Shown: piece after piece, positions 10,678 to 20,084 of the stretch
Numbering within the stretch: position 1 is the first letter of the stretch
Layout of the letters: each line of letters starts with the position of its first letter
Assembly (NCBI GenBank): GCA_024276395.1
Contig: JAJRXH010000202.1
Coordinates: 1-23,913, forward strand
Length of the DNA: 23,913 bases
Source: an archaeon
GTDB lineage: Archaea; Asgardarchaeota; Heimdallarchaeia; Hodarchaeales; S146-22
Direction: 5' to 3'
Made by a program: the position numbers and the translations under genes
The notes under the pieces: generated by a model
Told to the model about the DNA's origin: nothing
What the model saw: only the letters and a program-made list of their open reading frames with translations
The model's database searches: none

Positions 10678-12150
10678 ATGACAACCGGGGAAACATACAT
10701 GTCCTCAATTGACGATTTATTCGAAGAAATAGAAGAAGTCATCTCAATTCCGACAAGGAAAGCAAAAAGAAAAAAAATAATAGAATATAATCCAGAAGAT
10801 TTCATTTCACACCTAAGTCTCACGAGACGAGGAATGCTTATCACCATGGTCATCATCATTGACTTCGGACTCTACCTTTCCACCTCCCTCCCTTTTTTCG
10901 GTATCATCCTCATCATTTTTTCCGTCTTGTTTGCTATTGACTATTACTTATTCGTCAAAAATCCACTAGAAAATCTTCTCATCAAGCGACACATCGATCG
11001 AGCTTTGATGTTCGAAGGAGATTACAGCCTCGTGGAAGTTGAGGTCACCAACACGCATCCTACCAAGCCTATTGGTCTTCTAGAGGTAGAAGAGTATTAT
11101 CAGCCAGAAATCAAAGTCTTAACCACGAAGGAAAAACTAACCAAAAGCATGGCATTAGGACCAAAAGAATCTAATTACTTGAGGTATCTCTTTAAAATTG
11201 AACAAATGGGAAAGTACATCATCGGACCAATCAAGATGACTATAAAGGACTTTCTAGGTCTTTTTTCAGTCAACGTGATCGCACCTATTTTCGATGATGT
11301 CATCATCTTTCCTAGAATCGAAGACGCACAACGAATGTTCCAAGTTGCACAACGAAGAAAGTTAGGAAGATTTTTCGACATATTTCGACAAAAAGAAATC
11401 GGTTCTGGGTTAGACTTCTTTGGATTACGTGAATACGAACGAACTGATGATCATCGTGCTATTGACTGGAAAGCCTCTGCTAAAAGAAACATGGATCCTT
11501 TGATGGTACGGATTTATGAAACAGTCAATCCTTTAAACATTCTCATTGCATTAGACGCTGGAAAAAGCATGCTAGTGAGACTTGATAATGGAAAAACTAA
11601 ATATGAGGCAGTTCTCCCCATAGTAGCTTTTCTCATCCTGCTAGGACTATCCACGCGTGACAACGTGGGACTAGCCATCTTCGATTCAGAGGTAACTGCA
11701 TTCTTGAAACCAGCAAACCAACGAAAGGTCTTCTTTGACGCATTAAGACTGTTTGCAATGAGCAACAAAGGTAACAAGACTAGTTATCGACAATTAGCAA
11801 ATTACATCGTTGCTGGGGTAAGAGAACGAACTCTGGTCATCATCGTGACAGACTTGGAAGGAGATGTGGAAGAATTACATGAATGCATCCGAATTTTGAG
11901 GCTAAAAAAGTTTCCCGTTCTATTATTGTATCTAAAAAATGAAGAACTCGAATTTGATGTGCCCTTATCATCATTTGAGGACAAAATTTTCCTAGAAACC
12001 TATCTCGCTCATCGTGCTGCTGATATCATCCGAGAAGTAAGGAAAAAAGGAGTATCCACGATGACACTGAGACGTGAAGATTTCGAGAAACTGACCTTCC
12101 CGGTTACGCTTGAAAGATGGATTTCGTTGGTATCTCAAGCAAGGAGGTAA
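10678..12150 (+). CDS. DUF58 family protein (two N-terminal TM helices plus vWA-like domain), the usual MoxR partner
   Basis: The diagnostic DUF58 motif DFFGLREYERTDDHRAIDWKASAKRNMDPLMVRIYE is present. It is followed by the vWA-like strand LNILIALDAGKSM, a degenerate MIDAS (DxGxS). The N-terminal hydrophobic hairpin is MLITMVIIIDFGLYL / FFGIILIIFSVLFAIDYYLF. An alternative start is the ATG at 10699. Confidence 0.88.
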   Translation: MTTGETYMSSIDDLFEEIEEVISIPTRKAKRKKIIEYNPEDFISHLSLTRRGMLITMVIIIDFGLYLSTSLPFFGIILIIFSVLFAIDYYLFVKNPLENLLIKRHIDRALMFEGDYSLVEVEVTNTHPTKPIGLLEVEEYYQPEIKVLTTKEKLTKSMALGPKESNYLRYLFKIEQMGKYIIGPIKMTIKDFLGLFSVNVIAPIFDDVIIFPRIEDAQRMFQVAQRRKLGRFFDIFRQKEIGSGLDFFGLREYERTDDHRAIDWKASAKRNMDPLMVRIYETVNPLNILIALDAGKSMLVRLDNGKTKYEAVLPIVAFLILLGLSTRDNVGLAIFDSEVTAFLKPANQRKVFFDALRLFAMSNKGNKTSYRQLANYIVAGVRERTLVIIVTDLEGDVEELHECIRILRLKKFPVLLLYLKNEELEFDVPLSSFEDKIFLETYLAHRAADIIREVRKKGVSTMTLRREDFEKLTFPVTLERWISLVSQARR

Positions 12151-12153
12151 GAA

Positions 12154-13950
12154 ATGTTGATGACTATTAAGAAAACAGCAGGATATCGTCCAGCTAGCCG
12201 CAAATTATCTGAGCTACCCTTGTATTTTGAAAGATTACTACCTTTCACGGGAATTTTGAGAGTTGCTTTCATTGATCTGATGATCCTAAGCATGCTCGGC
12301 ATCTTCATTTTCTTCGATTATGCTTCTTTAATAGTTCGAATCACTCGTGGATTAATTCGTCGTGATCTCATTCTTAGGTATTTTTCGTTGAAGGATCAGG
12401 AAATCTTATTAATTCTACTTCTAGTAATTCTATACAATATTAGTAACATTTTTTGGATATTGAAGCCTAAAAAGATTCCGTTTGGTGAAACTTACATTCT
12501 TTTTTCGTTTATTTTCATCATTCTATTCAATGATGGCATCTTGGTACTTCTCAATGCGGACCAATTCCTCCATTACACCCTAGAACACGCACCAATAGAT
12601 TGGATACTATTAAGTTTTCTCATAGGTCTTACTTTTTTCACGATCTGGTTCGAACGTTACGTTAGGAAAAACAGACCGAAGAATATTTTTGATCTTGATC
12701 CGAATAGCATCGTCGAAACACTCAATTTCTTGATTTTTCTTCTCTTTACCTTGTTTCCCTTATTCATATTGCTCTTTCATCCTTTTTACAATCCAAAAGG
12801 TACCATTGTTTTGATAGATATGACCATGAACCTTTTGATTTCTCTTGATCCTTTAGATATCATGGGCACTCTAGATCAATGGTTCTACATTCTTCTAGAT
12901 GGATGGAAAGTTCTCCTCCTACTGGGTACTTACATCATTACCTTTTATCTAATGTTTCGTGCTACTAAGCAGCACGTGCTATCCAAGTTGGGTATGACCA
13001 TTCAAAAAAAGAAAAAAGTTCTTTCAACACGCCAATTCATTCGCGATCAGAAATACAAGCTAGTGGGGCTTGCACTCGTGACGGGATCTCACACGATAAA
13101 AGATCCTTATAGTAGTATTTTATGGATTTCACTTCCTCTCATTTCATTGTTCCTCATTTACAAGGATGAACTAAATCGTTTTCAACTATTTGTACTCACG
13201 ACCATCTTAGCTAGTATCTTTGTAAGTCGATGGATTCTTACCACCAACCTAGATACTGGTTACTATAATTTCTCAATTTTTAGCGTTTCCCTGTTTATTT
13301 CAATAATTGGGCTATTCATCACGTTAGTCTTCATCAGAAGTGGATATTTTGTTAGTATTGGCCTATTTGCAATTGCCATCCTCATTACCTATACCTTTTG
13401 GGACACCTATGAATATCTTTTCATTGCAGCCTTGCTTATCATTTTAGGAATTTTTTGGCTCCAACAACTTCAAAACATCGTCATTCCCTCACAAAAACTT
13501 TGTAACTCAGGAAAAGAGGCAAGAAGTCTTCTAGAGAATGAAGAAATCTTTTGGAGTGGAATACAAGAACGATTTTCATTGTCAGATGACTTGATGAATA
13601 GAATTCAATCCTATGTTTACTCTACACTCCAAAATGATCAAGAAAAAGTTCTCGAAATCATTTATGAGCCAGAAAAACCCTATAATGCAGTCATTTTCAC
13701 GGAACAAACCTTTTATAAGGCATTCCAGCTTGCAATTTCCATTTTAGCACCTCTTTTCGTATTGCCTTTAATCTTAATTTACATTCCCATTCCCTTCTTG
13801 GGACTTTATCATTCATCATCAGCCGGAAATTTCGCCGTTATAGTAATTTTATCGCTATACTTACTATCATTTGTTTTGATTTGGCTTCCTCCCATCCCCA
13901 TTCCCAAGTTTAAGGAAATGGAACTAGAATACAGGAGGTTTAAGCAATAG
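12154..13950 (+). CDS. Polytopic integral membrane protein (598 aa, 10 or more predicted TM helices, one soluble insert near residues 450-530), unknown family
   Basis: A strong AGGAGGT Shine-Dalgarno lies inside the end of the DUF58 gene, 6 nt before the ATG, with a 3-nt intergenic gap. The protein has long runs of hydrophobic segments. It occupies the slot where bacterial MoxR/DUF58 operons often carry a transglutaminase-like membrane protein, but I see no GxC...H...D transglutaminase core and the protein has only one Cys. Confidence 0.8.
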   Translation: MLMTIKKTAGYRPASRKLSELPLYFERLLPFTGILRVAFIDLMILSMLGIFIFFDYASLIVRITRGLIRRDLILRYFSLKDQEILLILLLVILYNISNIFWILKPKKIPFGETYILFSFIFIILFNDGILVLLNADQFLHYTLEHAPIDWILLSFLIGLTFFTIWFERYVRKNRPKNIFDLDPNSIVETLNFLIFLLFTLFPLFILLFHPFYNPKGTIVLIDMTMNLLISLDPLDIMGTLDQWFYILLDGWKVLLLLGTYIITFYLMFRATKQHVLSKLGMTIQKKKKVLSTRQFIRDQKYKLVGLALVTGSHTIKDPYSSILWISLPLISLFLIYKDELNRFQLFVLTTILASIFVSRWILTTNLDTGYYNFSIFSVSLFISIIGLFITLVFIRSGYFVSIGLFAIAILITYTFWDTYEYLFIAALLIILGIFWLQQLQNIVIPSQKLCNSGKEARSLLENEEIFWSGIQERFSLSDDLMNRIQSYVYSTLQNDQEKVLEIIYEPEKPYNAVIFTEQTFYKAFQLAISILAPLFVLPLILIYIPIPFLGLYHSSSAGNFAVIVILSLYLLSFVLIWLPPIPIPKFKEMELEYRRFKQ

Positions 13951-16704: not shown

Positions 16705-18381
16705 ATGGACGAACGTAAAAAGATGAAAATATGGATATTCATCATCTTGATATGCTCTAGTTCAATCATGCTAACCCATTTTTCTATAATGATGTCAACA
16801 CAGAATCGATACTTGCTTAATTTCAAGCAAAATGAAATGATAACAAGTCACTCTCATAAAAAAGATTATAGTCATTTAGTATCTCAAAAAACTCCCTTTC
16901 ATCAAAAAACGCCATTCATTAAGCAAGTTCAGGAGATCGGTACACTCTCTGTACATCCTTATCATCTCGAGGCCATTAATGATAGCCTACAAATTGAATC
17001 GAATTTTATCTTTAATGCGACATTAGATCGAACAATCTATGGAAGTGGTAGTATCATTCACATTAAAGGGTATCTAGGTTACGCTAACAATACGCCCATT
17101 GCCGGTAATGAAGTCAACATCACCTTTCTTGATGCAGTTAACAACAAGTTGACTAGCACCACGGAAAACACGCGTTTGGACGGAAGTTGGAACGTGGATT
17201 ATCAACTTTCTTCCTCAACTCCCACTGGAGGCTATCACGTAGAAGTTTGGACGAAAGTAAATGAATCGATCTTGTCCCTATCATTAACCTATACTGTTGT
17301 CGCACGCAGTTCAATTACTTTCATCTCGAATTCAACTCTTCCTAATCCACCCATTCACTATTTCCCCTTTTCAATCATCGTCAAGTTGAGTTCTCAAGAA
17401 ATAAGCGATGCTAAAATTATATTCACGACTGACGAAGGTATTACATGGAAACAAGCAACTCTAGTAAGTTCCACAGAAGACCCAGCAACATTCACCGCAT
17501 TGCTAGGACCTTTTAACAAGAGCATAAATAAATTACAATGGTTTGCTGTCATCATTGATAGTGATGGAAAAATAAAGGAATCTCAAATACAGGTAATCTC
17601 TTTTCGTCCGTTTAACGCTTCCATCACGATAGATATCACCTCAACTCCCTACACGCACGTGACTCACGTTTGGAATGTAACAATCAATACTAATTTACCA
17701 GAAGATTACTACTACATAAAAGTGAAAGCAGCCTTTCTTGGTAATGAGCAAGAGTTTTACTTGCCTACTTGGAAAGTAAGAGCTGGTTTTTATCAGTTCT
17801 CTTTCAACACGACAATGACTGGAACATGGACTTTTACTGCGGAATTACGATCGACATTCAATAATTCAATTTTAAAACAACAATCAGAAACCACCTATCT
17901 GTCCTTAATGGACATTCATCCACCTCGAATCCAAAATGTCGAGTATGATAAAAGTAGCATCTTCAATGATTTGCCAGTTGTTGTTACCATCATCATCGAA
18001 GAAAATCATACTTACCATGATTTACTAGTTTTCGTGAAATACCGTCAAGGTACCATTGAAGAAGGTCCTACTACCCAATGGTCAGTCAAAACCCTATTAT
18101 CGCCTGGACAGAATAGCCAAGATACCGTGAAAATTCAATGGGAAATCCCAGTTACATTAAAAGAGGGAGATTTATTTCAATTTCAAGTGATAGCAATTGA
18201 TGGATTCAATAACACTGCATCTTCAAGACTTTATACCATTTCTTATCCCTTAACAAGGGAAGAATCCACTAATTTTCCCTTCTACATGTTCTTAATCACA
18301 TTGATGATGTTTTTTTTCAATAAGTTCAAAAGAACTCGAATGCTGAAAAATGAGAAGATTCTTAATCAAGGAGATGTATGA
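16705..18381 (+). CDS. Type-I membrane surface protein with Ig-like/beta-sandwich domains, N-terminal signal/anchor and C-terminal TM helix
   Basis: A GGTGAG Shine-Dalgarno precedes the ATG. The N-terminal hydrophobic segment is IWIFIILICSSSIMLTHF and the C-terminal TM is FPFYMFLITLMMFFF, followed by the basic tail NKFKRTRMLK. The ectodomain has more than 10 N-x-S/T sequons and a GNEVNITF...RLDGSWNVDYQL motif of the same type as in the giant protein. Confidence 0.85.
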   Translation: MDERKKMKIWIFIILICSSSIMLTHFSIMMSTQNRYLLNFKQNEMITSHSHKKDYSHLVSQKTPFHQKTPFIKQVQEIGTLSVHPYHLEAINDSLQIESNFIFNATLDRTIYGSGSIIHIKGYLGYANNTPIAGNEVNITFLDAVNNKLTSTTENTRLDGSWNVDYQLSSSTPTGGYHVEVWTKVNESILSLSLTYTVVARSSITFISNSTLPNPPIHYFPFSIIVKLSSQEISDAKIIFTTDEGITWKQATLVSSTEDPATFTALLGPFNKSINKLQWFAVIIDSDGKIKESQIQVISFRPFNASITIDITSTPYTHVTHVWNVTINTNLPEDYYYIKVKAAFLGNEQEFYLPTWKVRAGFYQFSFNTTMTGTWTFTAELRSTFNNSILKQQSETTYLSLMDIHPPRIQNVEYDKSSIFNDLPVVVTIIIEENHTYHDLLVFVKYRQGTIEEGPTTQWSVKTLLSPGQNSQDTVKIQWEIPVTLKEGDLFQFQVIAIDGFNNTASSRLYTISYPLTREESTNFPFYMFLITLMMFFFNKFKRTRMLKNEKILNQGDV

Positions 18382-18821
18382 CCATGGGAAACGTGATAAA
18401 TTTAAATTTGCATTCCTACTTTCAAGATGTCTCTAATAAATGGCTGGAACTACTTAACACGTTGAGCTTGCAAGTACCTAACCACCCACAACTAAATCAC
18501 CTGATGACTCTTTATGAAGATCTCGAACAAATTAAGTTCGAGGTTCAGTATCTTCCATCACCCTCATCATCACTCCTAAAAAGACAAAAAAATATGTATG
18601 AAGTCCTCATGCTATTAAGTGCCGTGTTATGTCAAAAAATCCTTAGGATCATCGTGAACTTACATGACCAAGTAAGTCTTCATCAAAAATACCTAGAAGT
18701 GGAAGAAATTGAAGAAGTTACAAGACTCATAAGACAGGTAGAGCAAGTAAATCGAATGCTCCTAAGACTCCTCCAAGGTGAAGATCTCAACACAACCCTC
18801 ATCAAGAAAATGGAACAATAA
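18378..18821 (+). CDS. Small all-helical/coiled-coil cytoplasmic protein (147 aa), unknown family, possibly an ESCRT-associated adaptor
   Basis: The ATG overlaps the upstream stop (ATGA at 18378-18381) and is preceded by AGGAGAT. Heptad-like Leu/Glu/Gln-rich sequence is present (EVEEIEEVTRLIRQVEQVNRMLLRLLQ). The TAA at 18819-18821 is in the same frame as the next gene. No family was recognised by eye. Confidence 0.65.
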   Translation: MTMGNVINLNLHSYFQDVSNKWLELLNTLSLQVPNHPQLNHLMTLYEDLEQIKFEVQYLPSPSSSLLKRQKNMYEVLMLLSAVLCQKILRIIVNLHDQVSLHQKYLEVEEIEEVTRLIRQVEQVNRMLLRLLQGEDLNTTLIKKMEQ

Positions 18822-18833
18822 CATGCTAAAGCA

Positions 18834-19388
18834 TTGGAACAATTAAAGACAAAGCTGCTAGGAATTGAAGAAGATGTCGAGGAAATACGGATTCTCGAAC
18901 AGCAACAAAAAATACATAAGGGAAGATTTCTCGGAAAGAAGAAATTCATCAAGCAATTAGGCGACATCATTCTTCAGGAATCTGATGAACTCTCAAAGAA
19001 AAGTGGCGGTATTGTTGAATTACAGAGGTTGTATCGCCACTTAAAAAGAAAATATGACATTGATATGGATGTTACAGATGTACTCGATGCTTGCGAATTT
19101 CTGTTAGCAAAAAACGTCATCGATGCCATCATCGAATTACCAGGTTCAGTTATGAAAATCATCTCTTTTTCTCCGATGGCACTTGATGCTGAAATACGAC
19201 AATTACTATTTTTAGCAAGTTCCCACGGCGGCGTGCTAACTAGAGAAGAAATCACGCTAAGCACGGACTGGGATCAAGCTCGGATAGATCGTCTCATGGA
19301 TCTGATGGAACGAAGAGGTTTTGCCATACGAGAAAAATCCTTCGAGGGAGAAAAGTGGTACTTCCCAGCATTCTATGAAAATAAGTAA
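18834..19388 (+). CDS. vps22: ESCRT-II Vps22/Vps36-like protein (EAP30 domain, tandem winged helices)
   Basis: KKSGGIVELQRLYRHLKRK...DVTDVLDACEFLLAKNVIDAIIELPGSVMKIISFSP forms the first winged helix. SHGGVLTREEITLSTDWDQARIDRLMDLMERRGFAIREKSFEGEKWYFPAFY forms the second. Both follow the pattern I recall for eukaryotic Vps22/SNF8: GG(I/L)xxLxxL, V(S/T)xxD(L/V)xxA, VTxxE(I)...W...RA...L, and aromatic-aromatic-x-P-A-(L/F) at the C-terminus. The only usable start is TTG 18834. There is no in-frame ATG until codon ~77 and no Shine-Dalgarno. Confidence 0.78.
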   Translation: MEQLKTKLLGIEEDVEEIRILEQQQKIHKGRFLGKKKFIKQLGDIILQESDELSKKSGGIVELQRLYRHLKRKYDIDMDVTDVLDACEFLLAKNVIDAIIELPGSVMKIISFSPMALDAEIRQLLFLASSHGGVLTREEITLSTDWDQARIDRLMDLMERRGFAIREKSFEGEKWYFPAFYENK

Positions 19389-19433: not shown

Positions 19434-20084
19434 ATGTCAAAGCAATTAGAACTAAAGGATGTTATCAAGCCTATCAGTGGAGCAGCAAGCAAAAAATCTC
19501 TGTTTCGGAAAAAAAAGGTCATCTCATCACAACGAATCCGAGTAGGTGAAGAATCAATCATCACGCGCATCACATTTCAAAATGACAAAAATGCCCCAGA
19601 TTTCTTTCTCGTGACGCCTCATGAACACGCTGTCATTATTATGGATGGTGTACCATTCGAAATAAAACAAGAAGGAGCATTCGAAATCATCAAAAAGAAG
19701 AAATGGCTTCAAATCGAGATTATATGGCTAAAAAAGAATGAAATAAACATAAAATGGGGCTCTGGAGCCTTCATTACAAGCGACAGAAAAGAATTCGGAT
19801 GTTATGGCATTGCAAGAGTTCAAATTCTCCAACCTAGGCATTTCATGCTGAGAATTTTAGGTGGTGGAACTTTCTCATTTACTGACGAAGATCTTCGAAA
19901 CTTCATCCGAGCGGATCTCCTCAACACCCTTCGTAACAGTTTTTCAAGGTTTTCCATCGCCCAAATTCGGGCACAGAATAAATTACTTCAAATTCAAGTT
20001 AAGGCCAACCTCTCCCCAACCCTACGACGTTGGGGACTTGAATTGCTGGATTTTCAAATAATAGGGTTTAAATTCCAAGAATAA
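19434..20084 (+). CDS. SPFH-superfamily protein of the YdjI/Band_7_1 (COG4260-like) type, lacking the usual C-terminal zinc ribbon
   Basis: An AAGGTG Shine-Dalgarno lies about 8 nt upstream. The following match my recollection of the Band_7_1 profile: VTPHEHAVIIMDGVPFEIKQEGAFEI, IEIIWLKKNEINIKWGSGAFITSD, GCYGIARVQILQPRHFMLRILGGGTFSFTDEDLRNFIRADLLNTL and WGLELLDFQIIGFKF. That profile reads (E)xxAV..dG...pG.y.l; vyFv..re..n.kWGT; lrafG.y...v.dP..F; GiEl..f.i..i. Confidence 0.62.
   Translation: MSKQLELKDVIKPISGAASKKSLFRKKKVISSQRIRVGEESIITRITFQNDKNAPDFFLVTPHEHAVIIMDGVPFEIKQEGAFEIIKKKKWLQIEIIWLKKNEINIKWGSGAFITSDRKEFGCYGIARVQILQPRHFMLRILGGGTFSFTDEDLRNFIRADLLNTLRNSFSRFSIAQIRAQNKLLQIQVKANLSPTLRRWGLELLDFQIIGFKFQE

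Follow-up and report, generated by a model that had tools for sequence, protein, structure and literature searches.

A long Vps22-like gene of a Hodarchaeales archaeon is interrupted by a single in-frame stop codon, TAA, at positions 18819-18821 of the analyzed window. The window is the whole stretch of 23,913 nucleotides (nt) of contig JAJRXH010000202.1 (GenBank assembly GCA_024276395.1, positions 1 to 23,913, forward strand). The two open reading frames (ORFs) on either side of the stop, one for a helical fragment and one for a protein with the EAP30 domain, are almost certainly one gene. The interruption is probably a real and recent nonsense mutation in a redundant duplicate of this Vps22-like gene. 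It looks like an ordinary recent nonsense mutation or a base-call error and not like a programmed recoding site.

The first ORF opens with ATG 18378 on the + strand and runs for 147 codons until it is closed by TAA 18819-18821, beyond which the identical frame stays open for another 188 codons to TAA 19386-19388. As described in the first-pass annotation, a model's reading of the letters and their ORFs, this TAA is the sole stop between ORFs 18378-18821 and 18834-19388, and the junction codons read AAA ATG GAA CAA TAA CAT GCT AAA GCA TTG GAA CAA (KMEQ*HAKALEQ). No further stops or frameshifts occur in the 1005 nt of the interrupted gene. The canonical start nearest after the stop is TTG 18834 with 12 nt between the two, and the same annotation was right to call it the only near start and to note that it has no Shine-Dalgarno motif: none (GGAG, GGTG, or GAGG, 4-11 nt before the start) was seen upstream of it. 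Such a motif precedes 7 of the 10 + strand window genes examined, among them ATG 18378 (GGAG 18370-18373) and the SPFH gene at 19434. The earliest in-frame ATG downstream, 19065, lies 77 codons past TTG 18834 and corresponds to residue 230 of the joined protein. Public gene calls list two genes, one of 145 aa from 18384 (P0004) and one of 184 aa from TTG 18834 (P0003). The parts of the interrupted gene are as follows, where WH1 and WH2 denote the first and second winged helix.

18370..18373, + strand: GGAG Shine-Dalgarno motif for ATG 18378/18384
18378..18818, + strand: 5' part of the interrupted gene, 147 codons, N-terminal helical bundle and first half of the pre-linker helix, colinear with homologue residues 1-147
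18384, + strand: ATG, alternative start of the 5' part, used by gene callers
18819..18821, + strand: in-frame TAA in place of a conserved Lys/Arg codon, placed by codon alignment
18822..19388, + strand: 3' part of the interrupted gene, rest of the helix, disordered linker, WH1, WH2, and stop TAA 19386-19388; Pfam EAP30
18834..18836, + strand: TTG, possible reinitiation site without Shine-Dalgarno motif, start in the public gene call

A shared frame alone is unremarkable, because 121 same-frame pairs (two open frames of at least 120 codons with one stop between them) occur across the assembly. The present pair goes beyond chance since its joined product is colinear with uninterrupted homologues. 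All 22 homologues examined, comprising two orthologues (L024 and L025), the paralogue from the same genome, and copies from 19 Hodarchaeales genomes, are single uninterrupted frames of 329-359 codons from stop to stop that are colinear with the joined product. A comparison of orthologous loci for fused or split genes and for the codon at the break, as proposed in the first-pass annotation, found all 22 to be fused with lysine or arginine at the position of the TAA, and neither a two-gene arrangement nor a stop at this position was found among them. When the joined product was searched in six frames against 40 related genomes, nearly every sister-family genome returned one long match that covers query residues ~5-334 in one open frame with no internal stop. 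No gap occurs at the junction in the alignment of 20 homologues, and the TAA falls in the K/R column of the conserved motif L-Q-K-[K/R]-Y, which holds K in 18 of the 20 aligned homologues and R in 2.

The closest relatives in the protein database are the two orthologues, with 68-69% identity. L024 encodes 337 aa and comes from a short metagenome contig, and L025 (GCA_054014235.1, JBPMHF010000052.1) is located on a 90-kb contig with the gene order of the window: DUF4350, MoxR, DUF58, a 594-aa protein, a zinc-ribbon protein, an MG2 protein, the EAP30 gene, SPFH, and a zinc-ribbon membrane protein. The codon at the TAA position is AAG in L024 and AAA in L025, and the step from AAA to TAA is one A-to-T change. 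Around this position the window reads CAA TAA CAT, compared to CGG AAG TAT in L024 and CGA AAA TAC in L025, and where the window has TTG 18834 the orthologues carry CTC/CTT (Leu). The public call for the L025 gene (9920-10921, 306 aa, starting with ATG) is probably too short, as its frame is open upstream, where a TTG with a GGTGA motif would give a 333-aa product whose alignment to the window protein begins at residue 5 of the latter.

Among 5.8 billion clustered proteins, no homologue of the 147-aa ORF standing alone was found, and the sole match was the product of the window itself. The long single-chain form came up repeatedly when 1.84 billion representatives were searched with a profile, and short N-terminal pieces were limited to sequences whose tails are obviously frameshifted. 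Three family members from other public assemblies (P0007, P0008, and P0060) have junk tails after the conserved N-terminal part. These tails look like frameshifts or chimeric contigs, and broken copies of the family do not appear to be rare in public data. No other alleles of the stop site were detected among metagenome contigs with a 34-nt pattern in which the stop codon was left free, and no relatives closer than L024 and L025 were recovered by protein search of metagenome and genome collections.

In the 184-aa ORF, residues 32-167 matched Pfam EAP30 (PF04157) with 37.0 bits against a cut-off of 26.8 (E 3.9e-9). In the Protein Data Bank (PDB), the family profile matched human SNF8/Vps22 (residues 78-242) with E 7.5e-19, compared to E 9e-4 for Vps36, and the alignment to yeast Vps22 spans profile positions 133-310. 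The N-terminal module had no significant match in the Pfam scan. An AlphaFold2 model of the joined product, based on 21 aligned sequences and with a mean predicted local distance difference test score (pLDDT) of 80, contains the following predicted elements.

Residues 11-132: helical bundle
Residues 139-160: further helix with a kink at 149
Residues 163-185: low-confidence linker
Residues 187-263: WH1
Residues 271-328: WH2

The helices predicted in the 5' part extend over residues 11-32, 39-57, 64-102, 108-132, and 139-148, and helices up to residue 175 precede WH1 in the model; it is this helical region upstream of WH1 that is cut by the TAA. The stop corresponds to residue 148, inside the predicted helix 139-160 and ~15 residues before the linker. 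Foldseek searches of the PDB with the model placed Vps22 chains on top (3cuq_A, E 4e-6) and Vps36 next, with a target TM score of 0.58 and a root mean square deviation of 2.8 Å over 151 columns for Vps22. In the model, a flexible linker thus connects the helical bundle of the joined protein to its two winged helices, and the closest match is Vps22/SNF8. Modelling of the fused sequence had been suggested in the first-pass annotation, where a helical N-domain fused to EAP30 as in Vps36-type proteins was expected. The fused architecture is borne out by the homologues and the model; the likeness to Vps36 is not, as Vps22/SNF8 is the better match and no GLUE or PH domain was found in the joined protein. 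The expectation that an ATG start would destroy the first winged helix agrees with the model, in which residue 230 (ATG 19065) lies inside the predicted WH1. A product from TTG 18834 without WH1 was also considered and proved unfounded: starting at residue 153, it would keep both predicted winged helices.

Vps22/SNF8/EAP30 of the eukaryotic ESCRT-II (3cuq_A, 2zme_A, 1u5t_A) likewise has a helical region followed by a tandem winged-helix core, but the N-terminal helical bundle of the joined protein is far longer (~160 residues) and is connected to the winged-helix pair by a disordered linker. Unlike its eukaryotic counterpart, the window gene is located beside an SPFH gene in a MoxR-DUF58 operon and not in an ESCRT cluster, is broken by the TAA, and coexists with a separate canonical 241-aa EAP30 protein encoded on contig C116 of the same genome. 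The neighbours in the window are MoxR, DUF58, the MG2 protein, SPFH, and the zinc-ribbon membrane protein, and no Vps25, ESCRT-III, or Vps4 gene was found there. An Asgard-specific version of Vps22 fused to a steadiness-box helical hairpin ('Vps22#', asCOG cog.002769) was reported by Makarova et al. 2024 (PMC10936438). Compared by description, it shares with the joined protein a helical N-terminal module and two winged helices in one polypeptide in Asgard archaea, a combination that is present in 22 of 22 homologues and in the joined window product, whereas the window copy is a diverged duplicate with a long stem branch and is broken.

An intact paralogue of 338 aa with 34% identity is encoded elsewhere in the same genome (contig C356, 2982-3977; L023, 1072-2088). 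A GNAT acetyltransferase gene precedes it, and genes for a 288-aa SPFH protein and a UFL1-like protein (E3_UFM1_ligase, weak) follow it. The same order of GNAT, long Vps22-like gene, and SPFH appears at the Hodarchaeales locus L002, and the pairing of a Vps22-like gene with SPFH occurs in L025, in the own paralogue, and in L002. The maximum-likelihood tree grouped the window gene with L024 and L025 (support 100/100) and then with the C356 copy (99/98), while the sister-family sequences were placed outside this clade. Because of this grouping and of the gene order at C356 and L002, the Vps22-like and SPFH pair is considered duplicated in this family, with the pair of the window as the derived copy of the GNAT cluster. 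One copy, with the SPFH protein shortened to 216 aa, came to sit behind the MoxR-DUF58 operon. Since the pair is duplicated and the C356 copy is intact, the broken gene has an intact close paralogue. The genes directly adjoining it in the window are listed below.

16705..18381, + strand: MG2-domain membrane protein gene, upstream, with its TGA overlapping ATG 18378
19434..20084, + strand: SPFH/Band-7 gene, downstream, conserved partner of the long Vps22-like gene

The TGA of the MG2 gene and ATG 18378 overlap as ATGA, an arrangement that is not conserved, with a 58-nt spacer in the syntenic L025. This overlap may couple translation of the N-terminal fragment to that of the MG2 gene.

The age of the stop was assessed by comparison with the two orthologues. 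As synonymous sites are saturated, with a proportion of synonymous differences (pS) of 0.79-0.95 between the window and L024/L025, the comparison of this value with the proportion of non-synonymous differences (pN) and relative-rate tests were used instead of the rate ratio dN/dS. Because pN remained at 0.17-0.19 in both halves despite the saturated pS, purifying selection acted on both throughout almost the whole period of divergence. Compared with L025, the 5' part is 64% identical and the 3' part 72%, which is in the range seen for intact neighbours (67% for SPFH, 45% for MG2); the zinc-ribbon membrane protein shows 33%. In Tajima relative-rate tests, for which either the paralogue or the sister-family consensus served as outgroup, neither half showed acceleration in the window lineage (e.g., 12 vs 13-14 unique changes, all chi-square <3), and the gene bears no sign of long-term decay. 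About 5.4% of the single-base changes possible in the gene create a stop, and a dead copy would be expected to be hit again within ~0.02-0.03 neutral substitutions per site at 95% probability, with plausible indel rates allowed. If the gene is dead, the stop would be very young, since both halves were under purifying selection and no rate acceleration is seen.

The Vps22-like gene is one of several genes in the assembly that are interrupted in this way. Sorting of the 121 same-frame pairs by Shine-Dalgarno motif was too unspecific (51 of 121 without a motif) and was replaced by Pfam scans, in which the joined products of 20 same-frame pairs without a nearby start codon were examined. At least five other genes have a lone in-frame stop within one Pfam domain or within a domain pair of one protein.

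C103:4175 (L034): Aminotran_5, TAA
C516 (L045), minus strand: SF1 helicase, AAA_11/AAA_12, TAA
C256:7028 (L039): Peptidase_M20, TAG
C265 (L040), minus strand: ANF_receptor, TAG
C316 (L041), minus strand: PhzF, TAG

These interrupting stops differ in kind, and their contexts are unrelated. Two of the five, the aminotransferase and PhzF, were compared with related genomes, and nearly all genomes with a match are uninterrupted across the position, the exception being a single TAA in one genome (G008) that was not placed. Ordinary decay or assembly noise fits the set of nonsense-interrupted genes, the Vps22-like gene among them, better than a gene-specific device. In common with ordinary young pseudogenes of prokaryotes, the Vps22-like gene has a single disabling substitution against intact orthologues, an intact paralogue, and similar cases in its assembly; unlike them, it has no relaxation detectable yet, and its break lies close to the border between two modules and is followed after 12 nt by a start-like TTG. 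A sixth case is ambiguous: the body of methionyl-tRNA synthetase (MetRS) and a C-terminal tRNA_bind domain share one frame with a single TAA between them (C66:5335, L027), and no ATG, GTG, or TTG occurs in the 25 codons after the stop. The pair represents a split MetRS, or else the second part is a gene of its own, Trbp111-like, whose start is unusual.

A read-through or recoding product had been put forward in the first-pass annotation and found no support. Programmed or tolerated read-through of the UAA, which would yield the 147-aa fragment together with the full 336-aa protein, is very improbable. The frame is perfectly kept after the stop, and both flanking changes (CGA to CAA and TAC to CAT) move toward a leaky CAA-UAA-C context. 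In eukaryotic termination, A at -1/-2 and C at +4 make leaky contexts, and the archaeal release factor aRF1 is homologous to the eukaryotic eRF1. A C at +4 is also slightly under-used in the genome, following 15% of TAA stops compared to a base frequency of 20%, although this mild difference is uninformative. A leaky UAA would let some ribosomes through at CAA-UAA-C and supply a free helical module of 147 aa besides the full-length Vps22-like protein, and selection would have favoured the flanking substitutions for weakening termination once the nonsense mutation was in place; such an outcome is hardly to be expected. The stop is conserved in none of the 22 homologues, and TAA, the second commonest stop of the genome, ends 602 of 1601 long open frames. 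No suppressor tRNA with a UUA or CUA anticodon was found among the 28 tRNAs identified with Aragorn in this 86% complete genome, and an altered code or a suppressor tRNA was rejected, given how often TAA serves as a stop and the lack of a UUA anticodon in that set. No stimulatory RNA structure was indicated in the 121 nt of 18810-18930 (-14.5 kcal/mol, z -1.13 vs shuffles). The other interrupted genes of the assembly carry both TAA and TAG in unrelated contexts, and PylS and PylD were not found in the 86%-complete genome; decoding of the TAG-interrupted genes with pyrrolysine (Pyl) was set aside for that reason. In a review of archaeal recoding (PMC8211752), selenocysteine (Sec, UGA) and Pyl (UAG) are the only cases given of stop-codon read-through, and UAA goes unmentioned. 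If true, a leaky UAA would be the first archaeal read-through of this codon by a standard tRNA, and only under this unlikely reading would the gene be of wider relevance to archaeal translation termination.

An artefact of assembly or base calling, or a minor variant of the population that entered the consensus, would leave the organism with AAA (Lys) and an intact 336-aa gene; this is unlikely, though it draws on several observations. The TAA is one base from the AAA of an orthologue, and decay is not otherwise evident in the gene. The assembly is a fragmented metagenome-assembled genome of 759 contigs with a median of 3.8 kb and 5.9% contamination, lone in-frame stops occur in several of its other genes, and frameshifted junk tails occur in the family members P0007, P0008, and P0060 from other public assemblies. 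However, substitution errors are generally rare in the consensus of short-read assemblies, if this is one, and an error would leave the two flanking non-synonymous changes unexplained. A few real nonsense alleles per genome are, moreover, normal in prokaryotes. A functional split, with the helical and winged-helix modules made as two polypeptides, the second by reinitiation at TTG 18834, that reassemble or act separately, is improbable. The distance of 12 nt from stop to start is within the ~14-nt working range for termination-reinitiation (PMC10666635), near the spacers of 13-14 nt that kept 40-60% of native reinitiation in Haloferax volcanii, where spacers of 22-23 nt kept almost none (PMC10666635). 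The predicted cut is close to the low-confidence linker (163-185) between two separately folded modules, both halves are fully open and conserved, the residues beside the stop are altered in this genome alone, and the window has TTG where the orthologues have CTC/CTT. Against this, the second half has neither a Shine-Dalgarno motif, found for 7 of 10 nearby genes, nor an ATG, and the cut falls within the predicted helix (139-160), outside the linker. The split occurs in no relative, the 5.8 billion proteins contain no stand-alone N-module, and TTG is one of six Leu codons at saturated synonymous sites and as such unremarkable. Known archaeal termination-reinitiation pairs (Huber et al. 2019, 2023; PMC6728339, PMC10666635) resemble the window in their short spacer (here 12 nt) and one mRNA. 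Native coupled pairs, however, overlap by 4 or 1 nt and typically have a Shine-Dalgarno motif in the upstream gene, unlike the window with a spacer at the edge of the working range, no motif, and a TTG start.

Besides read-through, the first-pass annotation had raised a recently split gene, a sequencing error at 18819, and termination-reinitiation coupling; the favoured explanation is a real, recent nonsense mutation, ahead of a sequencing error. The ancestral gene would have encoded a 'long' Vps22-like protein of ~336 aa with a helical bundle, a flexible linker, and an ESCRT-II-type tandem winged helix, as a lineage-specific duplicate of the Vps22-like and SPFH pair at the end of the MoxR-DUF58 operon. 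In this genome its Lys codon AAA would have become TAA, read as an ordinary stop to give the 147-aa helical fragment, possibly coupled to the MG2 gene via ATGA, while the winged-helix module would be made at best at a reduced level through reinitiation at the TTG 12 nt downstream. The intact C356 paralogue could cover the function, and the interrupted copy would be a very young pseudogene or truncation allele that is possibly still polymorphic. The original unity of the two ORFs, the codon that was replaced, the domain layout, and the lack of long-term decay are shown by the comparisons; we infer that the T at 18819 is real, as well as what would be translated from this locus.

Relaxed constraint was detected neither as an excess of non-synonymous change nor as more disabling mutations, a pattern compatible solely with a very recent event, with an artefact, or with retained function. 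Several observations weigh against a recent nonsense mutation. The codons on either side of the stop carry changes seen in the window alone (R to Q and Y to H), and the Tyr that changed to His is otherwise invariant in 22 of 22 other sequences, and the window differs at 2 of 31 invariant positions. The probability of window-specific changes on both sides of a given column is ~5%, which is suggestive and not significant. The flanking changes could reflect an older, tolerated break or unreliable local sequence, and the changes at 18816-18824 taken together could stem from a multi-base mutation, from local relaxation after the break, or from local sequence unreliability. In the model, the cut lies ~15 residues before a flexible linker between independently folding modules, with a TTG 12 nt on, and a working two-piece protein is conceivable. 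An assembly or minor-variant artefact at T 18819, though not the likely case, would also undo the mutation.

For annotation, the 145/147-aa 'hypothetical' protein and the 184-aa 'EAP30' protein are to be treated as one interrupted long Asgard Vps22-like gene, and neither as two genes nor as a truncated ESCRT-II subunit with a TTG start. The Vps22-like and SPFH pair was duplicated in this lineage and one copy was drawn into a MoxR-DUF58 membrane operon, a modestly interesting example of the diversification of ESCRT-II-like modules in the closest archaeal relatives of eukaryotes.

A further same-frame pair is located in the window itself. The DUF58 gene and the following 598-aa gene share one frame with a single TAA between them (12148-12156), and the 598-aa gene has its own AGGAGG motif and ATG, so that the two are ordinary neighbours and serve as a negative control for the interrupted gene.

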